Shown: piece after piece, positions 17,568-53,980 of the stretch
Layout of the letters: every line of letters starts with the position of its first letter
Numbering within the stretch: position 1 is the first letter of the stretch
Sequence record: OZ346205.1
Origin: a phage
Direction: 5' to 3' (one strand)
Length of the DNA: 64,000 bases
Notes under the pieces: generated by a model
Seen by the model: only the letters and a program-made list of their open reading frames with translations
Told to the model about the DNA's origin: nothing
The model's database searches: none
Program-made: the position numbers and the translations under genes

Positions 17568-17831
17568 TCAGAAACCCTCTAAAAAGCTCTTGTAGAAAAC
17601 AATCTCAGTATCCACACCAGTCACAATCTTGTCGTTCCTGATTTCATCGGTAAGATAGGTGTCAAAACGCAGAACCTGTGTGGTGTTGTCACACATCCAC
17701 TCAGCTGTGACCATTGCGAAAATCTTAGCATCTTCATTATCTGGTGTGAATGTTACCACCTCACCGCACTTAAACTTTTCGATAGGCTGAGTGTTAGCTT
17801 TCGGTTCTGCGATAGTGATTTTTGTGGTCAT
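17568..17831 (-). CDS. 87-aa protein, tandem paralogue family A, copy 3
   Basis: One of three abutting 87-aa ORFs of equal length with shared N-terminal pattern. Confidence 0.5.
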   Translation of the reverse strand: MTTKITIAEPKANTQPIEKFKCGEVVTFTPDNEDAKIFAMVTAEWMCDNTTQVLRFDTYLTDEIRNDKIVTGVDTEIVFYKSFLEGF

Positions 17832-18094
17832 TATTCTCCTCCTTCTTTTGAATAGCTTGTCTCTCCAAGGATGGTAATTTTGGTGTCAAGCTCTGTAACT
17901 TTCATGTTTGGCGGCAGATCGTACAACTCATTATTTTCTAAATCGAACCCCCACACACAATGTTCTCCTGTTTTGACAATCATAACTATGTTTTGAATGC
18001 CGTCTCCGTCGCAACTTACCACGGTCCCACACGGAAAACTGTCTGCACGCTTTTTGTTCTTCACCTTAGAATTGAATACAATGCTGGTAGCCAT
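17831..18094 (-). CDS. 87-aa protein, tandem paralogue family A, copy 2
   Basis: As above; MAT...K.KK....GTVV pattern. Confidence 0.5.
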   Translation of the reverse strand: MATSIVFNSKVKNKKRADSFPCGTVVSCDGDGIQNIVMIVKTGEHCVWGFDLENNELYDLPPNMKVTELDTKITILGETSYSKEGGE

Positions 18095-18357
18095 TATTGT
18101 TCCTCCACCATAACTTCGCCAAGAATTTCTATGCAGGCATCCATTTCTGTAACAACCAAACTGTGAGGTAGTTCTACAAACACCTTTCTGAACAGGTCAA
18201 ATACCCCAACATATATGTTTGCAGGATGTGATTTTACAACAAGTGCTGTATTCACATCCCCAAGTTCATCAACAAACATCACCACAGTGCCCGGAGCTAC
18301 TGAGGACAGATACTTCTTAGTTTTACGGTTTGATGCAAATTTTAACTCTGTTGCCAT
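18094..18357 (-). CDS. 87-aa protein, tandem paralogue family A, copy 1
   Basis: As above. Confidence 0.5.
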   Translation of the reverse strand: MATELKFASNRKTKKYLSSVAPGTVVMFVDELGDVNTALVVKSHPANIYVGVFDLFRKVFVELPHSLVVTEMDACIEILGEVMVEEQ

Positions 18358-18372
18358 AAATAACCTCCTCTC

Positions 18373-19854
18373 TTACTTAGCGTACTCGATTAATTCCACA
18401 GTTTTCCCAAAGCTCGGGATATAATTTTTATTATACCCCTCAGTGAGGACCCATAGAGTATCGTACTTTTTCCACTTGTTGTCAACAACCTTTTGTTCAA
18501 AGTTATGCTCAAAGTATAGGTCGGTCAGGACGATGACATCTTTTGCATTAGGTATGTTGGCATCCAGATACTCGAACACGCAAGCAGCTGTTGTGCCCCA
18601 TGTTGAGTGGACCTCATAGTTGATCATCTCGTCTATGTTGCCGCGAGTGTATACTTTAACCTCTCCAACCTCAGTTGACCAACAGAACATTGTAACCTTA
18701 AACTCTTTATACAGATTGCACAATCCGGTGATTTCATTGAACATTTTCTTTAAAGTTCTTTGAGAGATCGAGCCAGAAACGTCTAAAGCCACCACAATAT
18801 CTATAGTGTTTTCCGGATTACGACCAGGAACAATAACGTGCTGGTTCTTGTTTATAGCCCCAACTTTTCGCATTGTGCTGGTCAAAGACCCAGATCGGCG
18901 ACCAGGTTTTCTGTAGGTCAGTTCGGCCTTTCTTTTAGACAACATACGTTGCTTAATGATGTCTATATAGTTGATTACAGGCTTACCTCTGTTCTTGACA
19001 AACTCACGCACCGCCTCAGGGCAACGGCCTCCGGACGCTTGCATTGCTGCCTCCAGCATATCACCAGAGTCCTGCATGGCCTGATCTTTATCAGATTGGC
19101 TGATTACAGGTTGTGGCTGATCATACCCCATAGCCTTTCCAAGATTATCACTGGTGCCACCGTTCCCACTCATGTGATCATCGGTTTGTCGCTTATCACT
19201 TTGAGAGTTCTCACCTTTACCGTTCTTACTTTTACCGTTATTCTGATCTCTTTGCTTATCAAGAACTGCATAAACGTTCTCAGCAATCCATCCATGAAAC
19301 TTCATGTCGCAGTAGCAGCTGGCTAAGAAGCCAAAAGGCTTACCTTTCATGAACGTAGTGCTTTTCCCCTTCGGGAAGAAAACACAAGGAGGTTTGCTAA
19401 AGTCAACCACAAGGCCTGTGTTGATAACGTGATCACAAGCAATATTGAACAGTTCCGGCTCAAAGCTTTTACCACGGACTAGGTGATCACAGATAATATG
19501 CCCCACCTCATGTGACAGAAGGAAGGCCACCTCTTTCACAGATTTTGGGGAATAGAAAACTTCAGCCATCTCAAACTGCTCGTCAGTTAGAGAAGCCTTA
19601 AGAATAGCCTTGCGTTCATCAGCCAATCCCATAATGAACTCAGGACTGTAATAGATGCGTTTATGGTCGGTTGCCATGGTGGAGCACCATGTGTGGTTTT
19701 CTACGAACTGCAACCCTGACAGTAGTGTGCCATAAAACGGCAGCTTTTCAAGGAGATACATACGTGCAGCCTGCAACATTCTCAGGGCATCATCTTTCTG
19801 CGAGGCAATGATTTCTGAACTTCTGCTATCCATTAAAACTCCAGAAGGGGCCAT
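18373..19854 (-). CDS. vWA-domain protein with zincin-like HExxH motif (493 aa)
   Basis: MIDAS motif in VVALDVSGSIS (DxSxS); HEVGH metallopeptidase-type motif; likely partner of the MoxR-like ATPase at 23485. Confidence 0.65.
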   Translation of the reverse strand: MAPSGVLMDSRSSEIIASQKDDALRMLQAARMYLLEKLPFYGTLLSGLQFVENHTWCSTMATDHKRIYYSPEFIMGLADERKAILKASLTDEQFEMAEVFYSPKSVKEVAFLLSHEVGHIICDHLVRGKSFEPELFNIACDHVINTGLVVDFSKPPCVFFPKGKSTTFMKGKPFGFLASCYCDMKFHGWIAENVYAVLDKQRDQNNGKSKNGKGENSQSDKRQTDDHMSGNGGTSDNLGKAMGYDQPQPVISQSDKDQAMQDSGDMLEAAMQASGGRCPEAVREFVKNRGKPVINYIDIIKQRMLSKRKAELTYRKPGRRSGSLTSTMRKVGAINKNQHVIVPGRNPENTIDIVVALDVSGSISQRTLKKMFNEITGLCNLYKEFKVTMFCWSTEVGEVKVYTRGNIDEMINYEVHSTWGTTAACVFEYLDANIPNAKDVIVLTDLYFEHNFEQKVVDNKWKKYDTLWVLTEGYNKNYIPSFGKTVELIEYAK

Positions 19855-19866
19855 TGGCCCCTGTCA

Positions 19867-20907
19867 TTATTTAACGTGTTTGAAAATACCTGCCAACTCG
19901 GTCATTGTCATGCGGGTGGTCTTCATAAGATCTGTCATAGCTTTCTCCATAATTGGAGATACTACCATAAAGTTTCCTTTAGTGAAACCTTTATTCCAGT
20001 CGGTCACCAACAGGGGTTTAAGTCCAGCTCCAAGACGTTCACCAGTTAAAGCACAGCATTTGCGAATATACGAACTCTTAAATTGGCTGAACGACAGATC
20101 AACTTTCATACCTACATCGTAGAACGTTTGACAATAGAAAGTGTAAGCTTTGGCAATCTCAACATCATCAGGTAGTGCAGGAACCTCTTCTGTAAGCTCC
20201 TCTTCGACCTCCTGAGTCTCTTTTTCCTCTTCATGCACCTGTTGCGTCATTTCTTCAATCTCTTCTGTGATAGGCTCGTTTACAATGTCGGAAATGTGCT
20301 TCTTGGGTGCACGATAAGTAACTTTAGACATCGGTAGCATATCTTCCTCCTCTTCTTCGTCAAAGAGTGCTAGTTTATCCTCTTCCGTTCCATATTGCAA
20401 GATGAAATCTTCAAAAGTATAATCACCTTTCAATTTCTCCATACGCTCTTCGCTCAGGTGGAGCATCATCTGCTGGACAATTTTTCGATCAGTTTCGTCT
20501 TTAATCAAGACTGCAGTCTTTTTATCTACCAGACAGTCCTTTAGAGAGTTGCATCTCAATCCCACCACACAACAGTTATCAACCGCATAAGGACCTTCAT
20601 CATCTATCCGCTCCAGAGATGGGTAGAAAGGATTCCCCAGCCCGTTTTCATCTGTGTGCATGTCAAAAGGTATAAGGGTATAGTCGCATACTCCATCTCC
20701 TAAAAGTTTTTTACCAAATAGGAGATATTCTTCCCATGACAGGTCGAACTCTATATCTCGTTTCCGTGCGTTATTCTGTTTGCGTCTATATTTTTTGAGC
20801 AAGCGCTCTAACTCTTCTGGTGTATAATATTTTTCAAGATTCATGAGTCGTCTCTCGTGCTCTGTAAGTGAAGAAATCGTATCAATTGTCTCAACAGATG
20901 TCAACAT
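19867..20907 (-). CDS. acidic hypothetical protein (about 346 aa)
   Basis: Track ORF; Glu-rich tracts; contains the MSKVTYRA segment also encoded at 22175. Confidence 0.5.
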   Translation of the reverse strand: MLTSVETIDTISSLTEHERRLMNLEKYYTPEELERLLKKYRRKQNNARKRDIEFDLSWEEYLLFGKKLLGDGVCDYTLIPFDMHTDENGLGNPFYPSLERIDDEGPYAVDNCCVVGLRCNSLKDCLVDKKTAVLIKDETDRKIVQQMMLHLSEERMEKLKGDYTFEDFILQYGTEEDKLALFDEEEEEDMLPMSKVTYRAPKKHISDIVNEPITEEIEEMTQQVHEEEKETQEVEEELTEEVPALPDDVEIAKAYTFYCQTFYDVGMKVDLSFSQFKSSYIRKCCALTGERLGAGLKPLLVTDWNKGFTKGNFMVVSPIMEKAMTDLMKTTRMTMTELAGIFKHVK

Positions 20908-20917
20908 CAAAAACGTG

Positions 20918-20946
20918 TTGACTTTACTCTAACTCCACAATATAGT
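20918..20946 (+). promoter_or_regulatory. sigma70-like promoter
   Basis: TTGACT, 17-nt spacer, TATAGT upstream of the plus-strand block. Confidence 0.5.
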
Positions 20947-20986
20947 GCACCCATTCGAAAGAAAACTAACATAGGAGCACTTACTT

Positions 20987-21886
20987 ATGGCAAATCTTAA
21001 CAGTTTTAGTACGCGGTGGAAACAGGACATAACAACCAATCTTTCAGCTGGGGACATCCTTTCTGCAATTTACGAGGCTTTAGATGATAAAGCTACTTCA
21101 AAAGCGGTTTGTACCAACCCATTAATTCCTATAGTGATGAAGGTTATTGAGCGTAGATTGGTATCTGGGTCTGATAAGTGGACATATTTAGATAATGAAG
21201 GACACACCTATTCCAATGGGTATGTCGATATAAAAGTAGAATACGCGGTATCATACCGCCGGAGCGGTTCTGTAACTTTCAACTTCTCTGGAGGTTTTCG
21301 ATCTCTGGCTACCTCACCTTTTGTTTCCTCAGAGGAGAAGTATGAGCTGCCATTTCTTTGGATGATGGCTAACGCGACAGGAAAAACCCCCGTTAGCATC
21401 CGAGTAAAATACAACTACAACGGATCTAGTAAGATCTATGCCGAAAGTGTCTCAGCAAGTTTTTATTTTGTGATGGGGGATGGAATCCTCAAACATATAA
21501 AGATGTGCGATATGCATGATGTTATAAATGAAGTGACTGATAAGAATGTTCTAGTGAAAGACCTCAACAATTTTTATACACCCGGAGACTATTACGTCAG
21601 CCGTCCACTGTGCATCTTTAATGCCGCACACCCTCTAGGTGAGTATTTGATCGCCAATAGCGATATTGCCAATAACCGCTTCGAGGTAGCAAGAGTTCAG
21701 AATGAGGTATTGACATCTTGCAAGAGCGGTGATAAGTTTACCGAAGAAGAGATGGGTGTTTTAGAAATGATGGGATATAAGTGTAGCCTTTGGGTAGATG
21801 AGGTGTTCAATGATTGCATCTATGGACAGGATATTTACCCATTAAAGAAGTATACTGATTCCAGTTTAATTTACGCGGAGATTTGA
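20987..21886 (+). CDS. hypothetical protein (299 aa)
   Basis: Track ORF with RBS AGGAG upstream. Confidence 0.5.
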   Translation: MANLNSFSTRWKQDITTNLSAGDILSAIYEALDDKATSKAVCTNPLIPIVMKVIERRLVSGSDKWTYLDNEGHTYSNGYVDIKVEYAVSYRRSGSVTFNFSGGFRSLATSPFVSSEEKYELPFLWMMANATGKTPVSIRVKYNYNGSSKIYAESVSASFYFVMGDGILKHIKMCDMHDVINEVTDKNVLVKDLNNFYTPGDYYVSRPLCIFNAAHPLGEYLIANSDIANNRFEVARVQNEVLTSCKSGDKFTEEEMGVLEMMGYKCSLWVDEVFNDCIYGQDIYPLKKYTDSSLIYAEI

Positions 21887-22161
21887 CTATGATGAAGTCA
21901 TGTGGTAGTGTATATTATGTTGGTGAGAATGTTCAGGCAGATAGTGTGTGGAAATCCATTAAGTCCACCACCGATGATGCCTTTCTGAGCGGGTTATGTT
22001 TTCCCAGCCCAGGGGACACTCTCCCTTACCCTGGAGATTTTGTTGTCAACAAGATGGACGGTTATACCGTGTGCCTGATGGTTGAAAAAATCTTTTTAGA
22101 CACTAGACACAATCACCGTCTTGTGTTAAAATTTCAAGAATGTAAAATGACAATTGCCTAA
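21883..22161 (+). CDS. hypothetical protein (92 aa)
   Basis: Track ORF; start overlaps upstream stop. Confidence 0.45.
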   Translation: MTMMKSCGSVYYVGENVQADSVWKSIKSTTDDAFLSGLCFPSPGDTLPYPGDFVVNKMDGYTVCLMVEKIFLDTRHNHRLVLKFQECKMTIA

Positions 22162-22174
22162 GGAGACCTTGCCG

Positions 22175-22531
22175 ATGTCTAAAGTTACTTATCGTGCAGC
22201 TATTTACTGCAATGAACACCCAATCAATAATGATGGTCACTGCCTTTTTAAAGAAAATCAATTGGGCTGTATTGTCCTCCCTGATGAAGGGGAAGGTTAT
22301 CTGATTGCGTTGACAGGGTTTGAACCTGAAGCTCTGGAAGCCAATCTTGACTACCTGGTAGAGGAGGGTGCTGCAGACCTGGTTGCCAATGGCCTCTCCA
22401 TAAGCCTTGACGAAGTGGAGCGCTTCATGGGCAATTACCGTGTAGTGCGTGAGTTTACTATCGAGGTGGAAACTCCCGAGTGGGGTAGCCATGAAACTAA
22501 TGCCGAAGAAAAAGAAGAGGAGGTAGAATAA
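22175..22531 (+). CDS. acidic hypothetical protein (118 aa)
   Basis: ATG after RBS AAGGAGA; N-terminus MSKVTYRA lies in the 27-bp inverted repeat. Confidence 0.5.
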   Translation: MSKVTYRAAIYCNEHPINNDGHCLFKENQLGCIVLPDEGEGYLIALTGFEPEALEANLDYLVEEGAADLVANGLSISLDEVERFMGNYRVVREFTIEVETPEWGSHETNAEEKEEEVE

Positions 22532-22788
22532 TGAAAGTGCAGATCTTGACTAATGCCGAGAAGATGTTTATTGAAGATACACCTTTTGAAGCTGGTGAGC
22601 TACAGTTCGTTTATTTTGTTGACTTAGATAAGGTGTTTCCTGCACTGAATCTAGGTTTGGATGAAGTTCCTCATAAGGTTTTGTGCCAAGTTGTTCGTGC
22701 CTTAGCGGCAGAGGGGGAGTTCCACACCCTTCAAGATATCCAGACCTACGGGTATCTTGAACTACAACGAGAAGAAGAGGTGGACTGA
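22531..22788 (+). CDS. hypothetical protein (85 aa)
   Basis: Track ORF; stop/start overlap. Confidence 0.45.
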   Translation: MKVQILTNAEKMFIEDTPFEAGELQFVYFVDLDKVFPALNLGLDEVPHKVLCQVVRALAAEGEFHTLQDIQTYGYLELQREEEVD

Positions 22789-33120: not shown

Positions 33121-33147
33121 GCCCTGCCCGAAAGGGTGGGGCTTTTT
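33121..33147 (+). terminator. intrinsic terminator (repeated module, copy 1)
   Basis: CCCTGCCC-gaaa-GGGTGGGG stem with GNRA loop then CTTTTT; same core at 43520. Confidence 0.55.
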
Positions 33148-43518: not shown

Positions 43519-43548
43519 GCCCTGCCCGAAAGGGTGGGGCATTTTTAT
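43519..43548 (+). terminator. intrinsic terminator (repeated module, copy 2)
   Basis: Same CCCTGCCCGAAAGGGTGGGG hairpin as at 33121, followed by a T-tract. Confidence 0.55.
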
Positions 43549-47045: not shown

Positions 47046-47359
47046 TACTTGAAAATCCCTGGCATATCAAGTGTAAGGAGGATTTCTAAAATGGATTTCC
47101 TCCTTTTGATATTTCACCGGGCCAGATATTTTAAAATTCTTAGAAAATCAGAAAATGGATCGAAAACTAAAATGGATTTTTCAAGACAGGCACGATAAGA
47201 TGTGCTGCTCATTCTATCGTTCGCACCGTACTTTAAGTCACTATTCCAGATTTTTCCGCACATACTCTCACCCTTCTACCAGAACTTTCCCAGCTTACCT
47301 CTGACCTTTTATAACAATAAGTCCATTATTATCAGAAAGTTTCGGCACATCTCTTTCGG

Positions 47360-47506
47360 TACTCGATCTGTTTTTCATTTCAAAGACCTGATTTTCTGAA
47401 AATTTTTCTCGATAAATTTCTTAGTACTCGATCTGTTTTTCATTTCAAAGACCTGATTTTCTGAAAATTTTTCTCGATAAATTTCTTAGTACTCGATCTG
47501 TTTTTC
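47360..47506. repeat. 65-bp tandem direct repeat, two exact copies plus a degenerate third
   Basis: Unit TACTCGATCTGTTTTTCATTTCAAAGACCTGATTTTCTGAAAATTTTTCTCGATAAATTTCTTAG at 47360-47424 and 47425-47489; third copy diverges after 17 nt. Confidence 0.85.
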
Positions 47507-47660
47507 GTTTTCTGAATCGGATTTTCTGGAAATCGTTCCAGCTCTCGACCTGAAATTTTTGGGGACGAAATCGATTTTTCGTTTTCAGAAATGGATTTTT
47601 AAAATTTCTATATGGGAATATTTTATGGGATACTGTTTTATAGGAAATTGTTACGGAGGG

Positions 47661-49124: not shown

Positions 49125-49529
49125 ATGAATAAGAACGTACGCCGCATCATGAACGAACTGGCAAACGATGAAAAAATTATTGACATGCATTTGATCAACA
49201 TTTGCCGCCGTTGTGTAACATACAACAACCGCGCCGCAAAAGCGCGTGAGATGAACGCAAAAGGCACCTTAAAGCCATTCCAGGTGGTGGTAAAGGCCAT
49301 TAAAGATGTAACTAATACGGCAAACCAGGTACAGGGGAACACCAACGAGAGTACCAATATTGATCCGGCTTACATCATGAAACGGATCCGGACCTGCAAG
49401 AACAAAGAGCAAGTGTATAATGTCATAGACTGGTTGGATTCTATGGGCGATGTGGTGTACAATAGATTCTCGGCAGCTATTGAGATCCAGCTTGACAGGT
49501 TAGACGGTAAAGTACTTAAAACTTACTAA
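49125..49529 (+). CDS. hypothetical protein (134 aa)
   Basis: Track ORF behind cassette leader. Confidence 0.55.
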   Translation: MNKNVRRIMNELANDEKIIDMHLINICRRCVTYNNRAAKAREMNAKGTLKPFQVVVKAIKDVTNTANQVQGNTNESTNIDPAYIMKRIRTCKNKEQVYNVIDWLDSMGDVVYNRFSAAIEIQLDRLDGKVLKTY

Positions 49530-49530
49530 A

Positions 49531-49576
49531 TTTATTTTTAGATGGCCTTGACTCCAGGGCCATCAATAAAGTAAAT
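49531..49576 (+). repeat. conserved about 45-bp palindromic element, copy 1
   Basis: TTTATTTTTA-GATGGCC-ttgactccag-GGCCATC-AATAAAGTAAA, immediately after a stop codon. Confidence 0.6.
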
Positions 49577-49609
49577 TAATCTCAGCTAAGCGAAAAAGGG
49601 GGCTTTAAG

Positions 49610-49808: not shown

Positions 49809-50150
49809 ATGACTACTATGGCCGCCGCAGAAAAAGCTATTCAGATCGCCGCACTGAAAAAACAGATCGCAGACCTTGAGAACAAGATCGATAACTTTGA
49901 AATCGACGAGGACAAGTACGACGAAAACTATGATGAATGGTTAGACGAGATCTACGGCGAAATTATGATCGGAAACATTTCTTTTCTTCCGTCGCGTATC
50001 CTCAAGGAGCTAGATCCTATCGCTTACCGCTGCGGATTTAGCGACTACATCGACAGCCTGGATATTGAGGACGATGAAGAATACCAGGAATTACAGACAG
50101 AGTTAGAAGAAGCAAAAGAAGAGCTTGCAGAACTGGAAGAAAACGAGTAA
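49809..50150 (+). CDS. acidic coiled-coil-like protein (113 aa)
   Basis: Track ORF; Glu/Asp-rich with heptad-like pattern. Confidence 0.55.
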   Translation: MTTMAAAEKAIQIAALKKQIADLENKIDNFEIDEDKYDENYDEWLDEIYGEIMIGNISFLPSRILKELDPIAYRCGFSDYIDSLDIEDDEEYQELQTELEEAKEELAELEENE

Positions 50151-50163
50151 GATTATTTTTAGA

Positions 50164-50207
50164 TGGCCTTGACTCCAGGGCCATCAATAAAGTAAACTTT
50201 ATACTGT
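50164..50207 (+). repeat. conserved about 45-bp palindromic element, copy 2
   Basis: Near-identical to 49531-49576. Confidence 0.6.
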
Positions 50208-50239: not shown

Positions 50240-50485
50240 ATGGCAGCACTAATCACCAAATATTATGCCCCTACCAACACCAAAAGCGCCCGTATCATGG
50301 TAAAAGGCTTCGGACGTAAAAAGGTGTACACCTGGGATTATGCCTTAGACACGGAAGACAACTACACCAACGCGATGACCGATTTTATTAATGATCTGAA
50401 CACGCGGATCTTGACAAATTATAAAATTACCGATATTGCCTATATAGGGGAAGGCGGGATCTGTTTTGTCGGTATCGTCAAATAA
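50240..50485 (+). CDS. hypothetical protein (81 aa)
   Basis: RBS AGGAG then ATG. Confidence 0.5.
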   Translation: MAALITKYYAPTNTKSARIMVKGFGRKKVYTWDYALDTEDNYTNAMTDFINDLNTRILTNYKITDIAYIGEGGICFVGIVK

Positions 50486-50487
50486 GC

Positions 50488-50530
50488 TGTTTTTTCGGTG
50501 GTCCTGGTAGCAGGGCCATCTATAAAGATA
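50488..50530 (+). repeat. degenerate copy of the about 45-bp element
   Basis: TTTTTCGGTGGTCCTGGTAGCAGGGCCATCTATAAAGATAG; retains GGGCCATC.ATAAAG core. Confidence 0.4.
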
Positions 50531-50560
50531 GTTTATCAATACAATGAAAGGAGAAAGTAC

Positions 50561-53686: not shown

Positions 53687-53887
53687 ATGAGCAACAATAT
53701 CCGCGTTATTAACTTCAAAAAAGAAGAAAAAATTGCCGTGCTGATTGACGGTCAAGAAATCTTCAAGGGCGACTATGAAGATCATCAAACGGCGATTAGT
53801 ATCACTCGCGTGATTGGTTATCATAATTTCTACCCCCAAGGCGCTGAGGCAGCAGTTAAACGAATCAAAGAGATTGTAGGCCTGTAA
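53687..53887 (+). CDS. hypothetical protein (66 aa)
   Basis: Track ORF behind cassette leader. Confidence 0.5.
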   Translation: MSNNIRVINFKKEEKIAVLIDGQEIFKGDYEDHQTAISITRVIGYHNFYPQGAEAAVKRIKEIVGL

Positions 53888-53888
53888 A

Positions 53889-53935
53889 ATTTATTTTTAG
53901 ATGGCCTTGACTTCAGGGCCATCGATAAAGTAAAT
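53889..53935 (+). repeat. conserved about 45-bp palindromic element, copy 3
   Basis: TTATTTTTAGATGGCCTTGACTTCAGGGCCATCGATAAAGTAAA. Confidence 0.6.
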
Positions 53936-53980
53936 TTAAACCCTGTTAAAATACCACGCAGTTAACAAGGAGTGATAGAC

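Follow-up and report, generated by a model that had tools for sequence, protein, structure and literature searches.

A switch-like inverted repeat in an rV5-like phage genome as the probable footprint of one short templated mutation

The window analysed here, a stretch of 64,000 nucleotides (sequence record OZ346205.1), comes from a Vequintavirus, an rV5-like E. coli phage. At the locus of interest, a minus-strand gene (19867..20844) encodes a 325-aa Srd-like protein of family phrog_3118, the homolog of rV5 gp11. It is followed by three plus-strand genes: a 299-aa gene (20987..21886; rV5 gene 10 homolog, phrog_12338), a 90-92-aa gene (21883..22161; rV5 gene 9 homolog, phrog_12847) and a 118-aa gene (22175..22531; rV5 gene 8 homolog, phrog_12908). 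The 325-aa numbering follows the annotation in Murica, FFH2 and MaxBurger, where the CDS is 978 bp long; the predicted promoter of this gene lies downstream of an alternative TTG start at 20910, which would give 347 aa. That promoter, a sigma70-like TTGACA-17-TACGAT (20904-20876, minus strand), stands back to back with a second predicted sigma70-like promoter, TTGACT-17-TATAGT (20918-20946, plus strand), and a palindrome at 20900-20922 holds the -35 boxes of both. Scans of the four genes with Pfam and NCBIfam gave no matches, and an old label of the gene 10 homolog, 'alpha 1-3 fucosyltransferase', has no Pfam support.

In the gp11 homolog, an acidic linker joins an N-terminal Srd/endonuclease-VII-like domain to a C-terminal domain, and the full length of the protein matches the PHROG profile phrog_3118 at 8e-113. 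The N-terminal domain matches phrog_4592, 'decoy of host sigma70' (3e-15), and phrog_1400, 'Srd anti-sigma factor' (3e-10), as well as endonuclease-VII-like PHROGs. On the strength of these significant profile matches, the gene is assigned to the Srd-like family (T4 Srd, 'decoy of sigma70'); the rV5 genome paper describes gp11 as 'probably a Srd homolog'. The linker is 35% D+E and occurs in several length variants in relatives. We also considered whether gp11 had arisen by tandem duplication and comprises two degenerate HNH-like domains, but found no support for the idea: BLASTP between its N and C halves gave E = 1.9.

The 27-mer CCGATGTCTAAAGTTACTTATCGTGCA is present in exactly two copies, one per strand, at 20308..20334 (minus) and 22172..22198 (plus), with 0 mismatches, and the perfect inverted repeat of the original prediction is real. 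It is the longest 100% complementary inverted repeat in the 64-kb window and the sole perfect long one, and no third copy was found there even with 3 mismatches allowed. As had been described, the plus copy supplies the ATG and first eight codons (MSKVTYRA) of the gene 8 homolog at 22175, together with the 3 nt before the ATG, and the minus copy lies inside the minus-strand ORF 19867-20910. There it encodes PMSKVTYRA in the acidic stretch that links the two domains of the Srd-like protein, at residues 171-179 of the 325-aa gene or 193-201 of the 347-aa reading. The spacer between the arms is 1837 nt long. It contains the divergent promoters and the two plus-strand genes (the gene 10 and gene 9 homologs) that had been placed there, and also the 5' half of the minus-strand gene (~170 codons), which had gone unmentioned. 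The flanks, said to be unrelated, are so in the window; in Murica, Gotham, FFH2 and C2, identity runs 2 bp further, giving a repeat of 29 bp.

There is next to no probability that the repeat reflects chance similarity or a convergent peptide motif. The chance expectation of matches to the 27-mer is 0, and 0/100 shuffles yielded two matches. The two copies share a reading frame and the 27/27 identity includes all synonymous positions, so that nine of nine codons agree at their synonymous sites (by our own arithmetic, about 1 in 37,000 with uniform codon choice). This agreement indicates a copy made at the DNA level rather than convergence of peptides. Some of the matching bases, ACCGATG and ATCGTGCA(GC), were apparently shared by chance beforehand, but a 13-bp core and a 12-bp deletion, described below, appear in one step on the tree.

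We compared the locus across 117 Vequintavirus phage records. The gene 8 arm is matched in 117/117, and exactly 28 records match in two places; the derived gp11 linker is found in 28/117 and the ancestral linker in 89/117, rV5 included. In every individually examined Vequintavirus, gene 8 begins MSKVTYRA, with or without an internal copy. The long ancestral linker, SPMQDFKNFMADRAAN, is present in rV5, FV3, MaxBurger and APECc02. A long linker (MSPMQDFKNFMA.. / MTPAQELREFMEKRAEKHI..) also occurs in two IMG/VR relatives (L003 and L004), where it stands together with the gene 8 copy, and in 65%-identical outgroups (L005-L008). Since the gene 8 copy is present in all records and the internal copy in only 28, this distribution identifies the gene 8 start as the donor and the gp11 linker as the recipient. 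The reverse polarity, gene 8 copied from gp11, was rejected because every relative has the gene 8 copy and the internal copy is confined to one gp11 allele lineage.

Outside the patch, gp11 of the carriers is a single allele with an identity of 98.6% or more, and on this evidence the patch arose once. For 27 records, identity over the 106 bp around it is 99% or higher, and it is 100% among the matches listed. Overall, the carrier allele is ~9% diverged, which we take as background. The repeat measures 29 bp in Murica, Gotham, FFH2, C2 and a gut metagenome contig, 27 bp in the window and A51.2, and 24 bp in ECP32, lengths that indicate independent drift of the two arms at present. The donor-side genes of the window cluster with the non-carrier MaxBurger, and gene 10 is 100% identical between them. 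Scans of IMG/VR and metagenomes for the repeat core found one contig with both arms and two with the donor only; with so few contigs, the gain in power over the phage records alone is small.

The state before the event can be read in rV5 (L015), whose linker and donor both carry ACCGATG (7 bp) and ATCGTGCAGC (10 bp), in register and in frame; the left identity is 8 of 9 when taken as T-N-ACCGATG. The ancestral gp11 linker reads ...TC-ACCGATG-CAGGATTTTAAAAATTTCATGGCTG-ATCGTGCAGC-CAAC..., and the gene 8 start of the same ancestral genome, 1.8 kb away on the opposite strand, reads ...TT-ACCGATG-TCTAAAGTTACTT-ATCGTGCAGC-TATT.... Between the microhomologies, 25 bp have gone out and 13 bp of donor sequence have come in, a net change of -12 bp, in frame (-4 codons), which turns SPMQDFKNFMADRAAN into LPMSKVTYRAPK. 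The resulting 29-bp tract of the Murica-type gp11 linker, TACCGATGTCTAAAGTTACTTATCGTGCA, is the reverse complement of the gene 8 start region. In the window, the core TCTAAAGTTACTT occupies 20316-20328 (minus strand) in place of the 25 bp of ancestral linker, and is bordered by CCGATG (sense strand; 20329-20334) and ATCGTGCA (20308-20315), both matching microhomologies of the ancestral allele. These allele comparisons delimit the patch and its microhomologies.

Relative to the ancestor, the patch is a cluster of ~7 substitutions and a 12-bp deletion within 25 bp, against a background divergence of ~9%, and a reverse-complement copy of gene 8 accounts for the whole cluster with 0 mismatches. 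Three bases adjacent to the junctions match neither ancestor nor donor (TC to CT on the left; G to C and AAC to AAG on the right). They fit the ~9% background divergence of the carrier allele, yet they blur the exact switch points. Error-prone synthesis was set aside as an explanation for them, being superfluous in an allele that is diverged to this extent overall. Bounded by microhomology, the replacement of 25 bp by 13 bp bears the signature of a template switch or of short ectopic conversion. Ancestral gp11 homology returns at once on either side of a tract no longer than 29 bp, which led us to reject a domain or module swap. The suggestion that the repeat is a relic of module exchange therefore survives in part: it is a relic, but what was transferred is a stretch of up to 29 bp, duplicated from elsewhere in the genome, and not a protein domain.

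The original prediction further proposed that recombination across the repeat would invert the intervening segment and swap the coding bodies. Its geometry is sound. In a simulated inversion of 20335-22171 both junctions are in frame, the gp11 C-terminal domain comes to lie behind the gene 8 ribosome-binding site, and the gp11 N-domain and linker are joined to the gene 8 body. Such in-frame chimeras, the shared reading frame of the arms and the divergent promoters inside the segment are what one would look for in a programmed invertible segment, shufflon-like or Gin/Hin-like, whose flip swaps both the promoter and the coding body after MSKVTYRA. We consider such a programme extremely improbable, and the shufflon-like reading did not hold up. 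One arm is derived, missing in 76% of relatives (89/117) and in all outgroups, and stems from a visible copying accident rather than a conserved site; the two arms, moreover, decay separately (29, 27 and 24 bp).

None of the 117 phage records, all consensus assemblies, has a recombinant junction (0/117 with at least 80% of a junction query covered). The 26 best-matching records, which include every individually examined carrier, are collinear over the whole 2.8 kb (100% coverage, one piece), and the gut metagenome contig (L021, 137 kb) is collinear as well, with parental flanks at both arms. As far as these assemblies represent the phages, no inversion is seen among sequenced genomes; consensus sequences may hide rare inversion within a population. 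No integrase, invertase, resolvase or recombinase appears among the 219 annotated features of A51.2 (99.9% identical to the window), many of which are labelled 'hypothetical', and neither its 96-aa 'transposase-like' protein nor the adjoining HNH protein has a Pfam match. The rV5 genome paper makes no mention of an integrase or recombinase. In line with the remark that no recombinase gene is evident nearby, the six genes closest to the repeat are without a recombinase domain.

Inversion could also come about with no programmed role, through homologous, non-site-specific recombination across the 24-29-bp arms at very low frequency. A perfect inverted repeat of 27-29 bp is available for it, a length close to the minimal efficient processing segment that Shen and Huang (1986) reportedly found for RecBCD-dependent recombination in E. 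coli. Phage genomes recombine heavily, and mosaicism is visible at this locus. We still judge this process unlikely: no inverted genome appears among the 28 carriers and the metagenome contig, and an inverted phage would have its Srd-like protein broken in two and the wiring of two early transcription units changed, probably to its detriment. That the repeat now serves in carriers as a substrate for rare inversion, as a newborn phase-variable arrangement independent of a recombinase, is highly improbable; were it so, minority genomes would have the Srd-like N-domain fused to the gene 8 protein, and the C-domain expressed alone from the gene 8 ribosome-binding site.

We conclude that the inverted repeat is very probably a passive trace, left by a single templated short-patch mutation that struck an ancestor of one gp11 allele lineage. 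In the mechanism that we propose, a 3' end copying the gp11 linker would leave its template at the first microhomology, pair with the complementary strand at gene 8, copy ~13-21 nt there and return at the second microhomology. Two settings are conceivable: a replication fork, where the 3' end would switch templates between strands in the quasi-palindrome or 'four-point' manner, and the repair of a break by synthesis-dependent strand annealing (SDSA). We infer the enzymology only at this level. The exchange of 25 bp for 13 bp, in frame, would have given birth to the 29-bp perfect inverted repeat. In an acidic, length-variable linker the patch was presumably tolerated as neutral. The carrier allele would later have spread among Vequintaviruses through ordinary homologous recombination, with the arms evolving separately.

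The distance between donor and recipient, 1837 bp, is longer than in typical short-range template switches. This weighs against a switch within one fork, as classical quasi-palindrome switches span tens to a few hundred bp; over 1.8 kb, such a switch would need a long single-stranded stretch or looping. The distance is comparable to the length of a bacterial Okazaki fragment. Template switching does not strictly depend on linear proximity (PMC7954356), and there are documented cases, prokaryotic and eukaryotic, in which it has made an imperfect inverted repeat perfect (PMC7202029, PMC7954356). The locus does not fit classical homology-dependent ectopic gene conversion, the ancestral identity being only 7-10 bp per side with otherwise unrelated flanks.

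Judged from the alleles compared, the patch has the marks of a 'four-point' template switch: a mismatch-free copy, an ancestor set by outgroups, a pre-existing donor and short identities at the switch points. Quasi-palindrome template-switch mutations are said to have been described in phage T4 rII and in E. coli, by Ripley and by the Lovett lab. As in the published 'four-point' events (PMC7202029, PMC7954356), the locus combines a mutation cluster with a length change, explained by one reverse-complement copy from the same molecule; the switch points fall in short pre-existing identities, an imperfect repeat becomes perfect and the ancestor is recoverable. It differs in its span (1.8 kb rather than tens to hundreds of bp) and in its very weak prior quasi-palindrome, in which 7 + 10 bp of identity enclosed cores of different length (13 and 25 bp). 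In yeast, template switching between the arms of inverted repeats (PMC8604942) likewise produces a templated, in-frame multinucleotide coding change of several consecutive residues; that case involves short local inverted repeats and spacer inversions, whereas here a start-codon region was copied into the linker of a divergent gene.

Similarities extend to SDSA with an ectopic template and to MMBIR/FoSTeS, in that microhomologies of 7-10 bp bound a short ectopic tract and the transfer is non-reciprocal, leaving the donor unchanged. Those processes usually yield larger rearrangements, whereas this tract is ~13-29 bp with a clean return to the original template. With shufflons (R64 Rci/sfx), Mu G/Gin and P1 C/Cin, the locus has in common inverted repeats within coding sequence and the geometry of C-terminal exchange. 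It departs from them in that no recombinase gene or orientation polymorphism was found, the sites are not conserved and one arm is a recent copy confined to one allele lineage. In contrast to tail fibre and pilin switches, the genes concerned are early ones, of unknown or host-takeover function.

The mutation might have been kept for its usefulness, as a translational operator that both mRNAs have around an AUG, an internal initiation site for the C-terminal domain or a peptide tag common to the two proteins. The repeat is sense-oriented in both mRNAs, in-frame AUG included, GGAGG lies upstream of the internal AUGs and the allele is frequent (24% of records). We hold such a role to be very unlikely. 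An internal Met codon and an upstream GGAGG-like run are already present in the ancestral allele, and the patch therefore created no new start; for the copied AUG, moreover, the spacing from GGAGG is 14 nt. Most relatives are without the patch, identity of the arms is not maintained, and hitch-hiking with the gp11 allele, together with the sampling of closely related isolates, can account for how frequent the patch is.

The patch has no evident consequence for the biology of these phages or for their use against E. coli O157. The locus offers a caution and a teaching example: a repeat that spans a start codon and brackets promoters resembles a genetic switch, and some 117 relatives, with rV5 retaining the pre-event substrate, reduce it to a single microhomology-bounded templated mutation. 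On our reading of a passive footprint, template switching or short ectopic copying can reach over ~2 kb in the genome of a lytic phage. A single such step would rewrite several codons of a protein linker and at the same time create inverted repeats that could later be used as recombination substrates.

The window has exactly two copies of the 27-mer CCGATGTCTAAAGTTACTTATCGTGCA, one per strand (plus, 22172-22198; minus, 20308-20334), with no further copy at up to 3 mismatches and no match in any of 100 dinucleotide-preserving shuffles. When the full window was scanned for repeats, it was the sole long inverted repeat at 100% complementarity, with 1837 nt between its arms. The plus-strand arm supplies 3 nt 5' of the ATG and codons 1-8 (MSKVTYRA) of a 118-aa ORF (22175-22531), while the minus-strand arm encodes PMSKVTYRA, in the identical reading frame, within an ORF at 19867-20910. 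Window search and ORF reading therefore bear out the original observation of a perfect repeat with this coding content, and the repeat is real and non-random.

For the surrounding segment, 19800-22600, 119 phage records match with identities of 90-99.9%, and in 116 of them at least 80% of the segment is covered in one place. These are Vequintavirus, rV5-like lytic E. coli myoviruses, the closest being A51.2, nomine and PMBT16 (99.8-99.9%). Sixteen 'UNVERIFIED: Campylobacter phage' records (MG0656xx), with C. jejuni given as host, share 90-98% identity with E. coli Vequintaviruses over this region and are probably mislabelled as to host or contaminants. On the minus strand lies the rV5 gp11 homolog, termed 'Srd-like' in the rV5 record and genome paper and variously named anti-sigma factor, HNH endonuclease, anti-termination protein or hypothetical in other records. 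The protein is a member of phrog_3118 (8e-113). PHROG entries of the Srd, 'sigma70 decoy' and endonuclease-VII-like kinds also match its N-terminal domain, and it has no Pfam or NCBIfam match. Its start codon is annotated three ways (936, 978 and 1041 bp); the 978-bp form (325 aa, ATG at 20844), used in several records, agrees better with the minus-strand promoter predicted at 20904-20876 than TTG at 20910 does. Back-to-back sigma70-like promoters are predicted on the two strands at 20876-20946, as likewise described for rV5 in its genome paper. A palindrome, GTCAACATCAAAAACGTGTTGAC, at 20900-20922 has the two -35 hexamers of the divergent promoters of genes 10 and 11 in its arms, and is a possible candidate site for binding of a dimeric regulator. 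On the plus strand lie homologs of rV5 genes 10 (20987-21886), 9 (21883-22161) and 8 (22175-22531), all three of unknown function. On the other side, the DUF2201 metallopeptidase/VWA protein neighbouring gp11 (18373-19854) is called an HNH endonuclease in RefSeq records and an anti-sigma factor in phage ECP32.

It had been proposed that recombination across the repeat would invert 20335-22171 in a shufflon-like manner. Simulation agrees with the geometry supposed: both junctions stay in frame, one product being the gp11 C-domain alone, expressed from the ribosome-binding site of gene 8, and the other the gp11 N-domain and linker fused to the gene-8 body. However, all other tests were negative. 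In none of 117 matching records was at least 80% coverage reached with a 102-bp query for the recombinant junction, which joined gp11 upstream sequence, the repeat and gene-8 downstream sequence; the 145 matching places in these 117 records reflect the 28 carriers (phages with the internal gp11 copy), each of which matches at two separate sites. The 26 best of the 119 records matching the region, including every individually examined carrier, each align collinearly to the window as a single piece. Exact-pattern scans of metagenomes and IMG/VR returned one contig with both arms, each with parental flanks, and two contigs with the gene-8 arm only. No recombinase gene is evident in the annotation: an integrase, invertase, resolvase or recombinase is absent from the 219 annotated features of A51.2, no Pfam domain matches the 96-aa 'transposase-like' protein of that phage, and the rV5 genome paper mentions none of these enzymes. 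On the junction, collinearity and annotation results, the shufflon was rejected. Rare homology-driven inversion in carrier populations is unlikely, and one with any biological role is barely credible.

The repeat is instead the relic of one microhomology-bounded templated patch. The alternative offered originally, a relic of module exchange, was right as to the relic but not as to exchange of domains. MSKVTYRA opens gene 8 in all E. coli Vequintavirus examined, among them rV5, FV3, JEP1, MaxBurger and APECc02. The IMG/VR relatives L003 and L004 (88-89% protein identity) have the gene-8 copy and lack the internal gp11 copy. The gp11 linker reads ...EEEEEDMLPMSKVTYRAPKKHISD... in the window, ...EEDMSPMQDFKNFMA(N/D)R(G/A)ANKHISD... 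in L003 and L004, and ...EEEYMTPAQELREFMEKRAEKHIKD... in the IMG/VR relatives L005-L008 (~65% identity); because L003-L008 all have the long linker, the long form is ancestral and the window form derived. On this comparison, gene 8 is the donor and the gp11 linker the recipient.

Since rV5 retains the ancestral allele, the pre-event substrate is visible. From left flank through left identity, core and right identity to right flank, the rV5 recipient reads GATATGTC, ACCGATG, CAGGATTTTAAAAATTTCATGGCTG, ATCGTGCAGC and CAAC; the rV5 donor CCTT, ACCGATG, TCTAAAGTTACTT, ATCGTGCAGC and TATT; and the derived allele GATATGCT, ACCGATG, TCTAAAGTTACTT, ATCGTGCA and CCCAAG. The rV5 donor and recipient were already identical over 7 and 10 bp, in register and in frame, and the 25-bp recipient core became the 13-bp donor core, a net change of -12 bp or -4 codons. 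The match to the donor extends to the T directly left of ACCGATG, giving a maximal tract of 29 bp, and the repeat is 29 bp in Murica, Gotham, FFH2, C2 and one gut metagenome contig. Three bases adjoining the patch match neither parent, owing to ordinary divergence of the carrier gp11 allele, which differs by ~9% overall from ancestral-type alleles.

The derived pattern combines a mutation cluster and length change, a zero-mismatch reverse-complement copy from the same molecule, and short bounding identities; as read from the alleles, it corresponds to the definition of template-switch mutation (the 'four-point' model) and quasi-palindrome-associated mutagenesis. Template switching converts imperfect into perfect inverted repeats in prokaryotes and eukaryotes (PMC7954356, PMC7202029). 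Donor and recipient lie in opposite orientations, so a nascent strand must have paired with the opposite template strand at gene 8 and copied the patch there. The donor-recipient distance of 1.8 kb exceeds that of typical short-range events and is comparable to the length of a bacterial Okazaki fragment. For template switching, spatial rather than linear proximity matters (PMC7954356). An identical scar would come from repair synthesis at a break, in which microhomology primes copying from the ectopic site and the strand then returns, and sequence is unable to tell the two routes apart. Classical homology-dependent gene conversion is unlikely because the pre-existing identity was only 7-10 bp. 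The templated patch is a fresh instance of a known mutational footprint, notable only for the clarity of the surviving rV5 substrate and its 1.8-kb span.

A 106-bp patch query matched 28 records at at least 95% identity, 27 at at least 99% (100% among the matches listed), and 89 records at 60-80%, the ancestral form with a gap; an ancestral-linker query over the same records gave the mirror-image distribution. One gp11 allele, at least 98.6% identical outside the patch, is common to the carriers, which supports origin in a single event. In the window and A51.2, genes 10 to 8 cluster with those of MaxBurger, a non-carrier (gene 10 is 100% identical). These donor-side genes group differently from the gp11 allele, and recombination therefore occurred between the arms; accordingly, the window donor arm has the MaxBurger-type TTGCCG and the repeat there is 27 bp. 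ECP32 is a mosaic, with an FV3/NHEP1-like donor arm and a repeat of only 24 bp. The arms are drifting apart, with no homogenisation or preservation at work. The ECP32 (L020, MK883718.1) recipient arm has CCTATG in place of CCGATG, a variant also present in the donor arms of APECc02 and metagenome contig L022 and absent from ECP32's own; chance could account for this, as could a further small conversion event in an earlier genomic background.

The patch sits between two conserved gp11 parts, in a linker stretch that is 35% Asp+Glu and has several independent length variants among relatives, and it appears to be tolerated in this acidic, length-variable setting. A selected function of the shared element is highly improbable: the ancestor already had a Met codon and an upstream purine-rich run, so no new start signal was created.

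Other repeats were seen in the window. Three consecutive minus-strand 264-bp genes (17568-17831, 17831-18094 and 18094-18357; 87 aa each), with similar N-terminal halves (e.g. ..CG.VV..), resemble a tandem array of paralogs, placed downstream of the VWA-metallopeptidase gene; the equivalent arrays in rV5 and Murica are annotated as hypothetical proteins. A 65-bp AT-rich tandem repeat at 47349-47599, with two perfect copies (47359-47488), a degenerate third and a related unit up to 47599, might be an origin, iteron or promoter array. An intergenic element of ~50 nt occurs four times (49528-49577, 50149-50198, 50484-50533 and 53887-53936), with a hairpin, GATGGCC-TTGACTCCAG-GGCCATC, followed by ATAAAGT, and resembles a promoter/terminator or regulatory cassette present in several copies. 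Direct-repeat pairs in the tail-fibre gene region (3315-3340/5388-5413 and 3795-3856/5853-5914; ~2.06 kb apart, 84-88% identity) point to either internal duplication or a pair of paralogous fibre segments. Near-identical GC-rich hairpins with a T-run, GCCCTGCCCGAAAGGGTGGGGC(T/A)TTTT, lie 10.4 kb apart at 33121-33147 and 43519-43545 and are probably reused intrinsic terminators.
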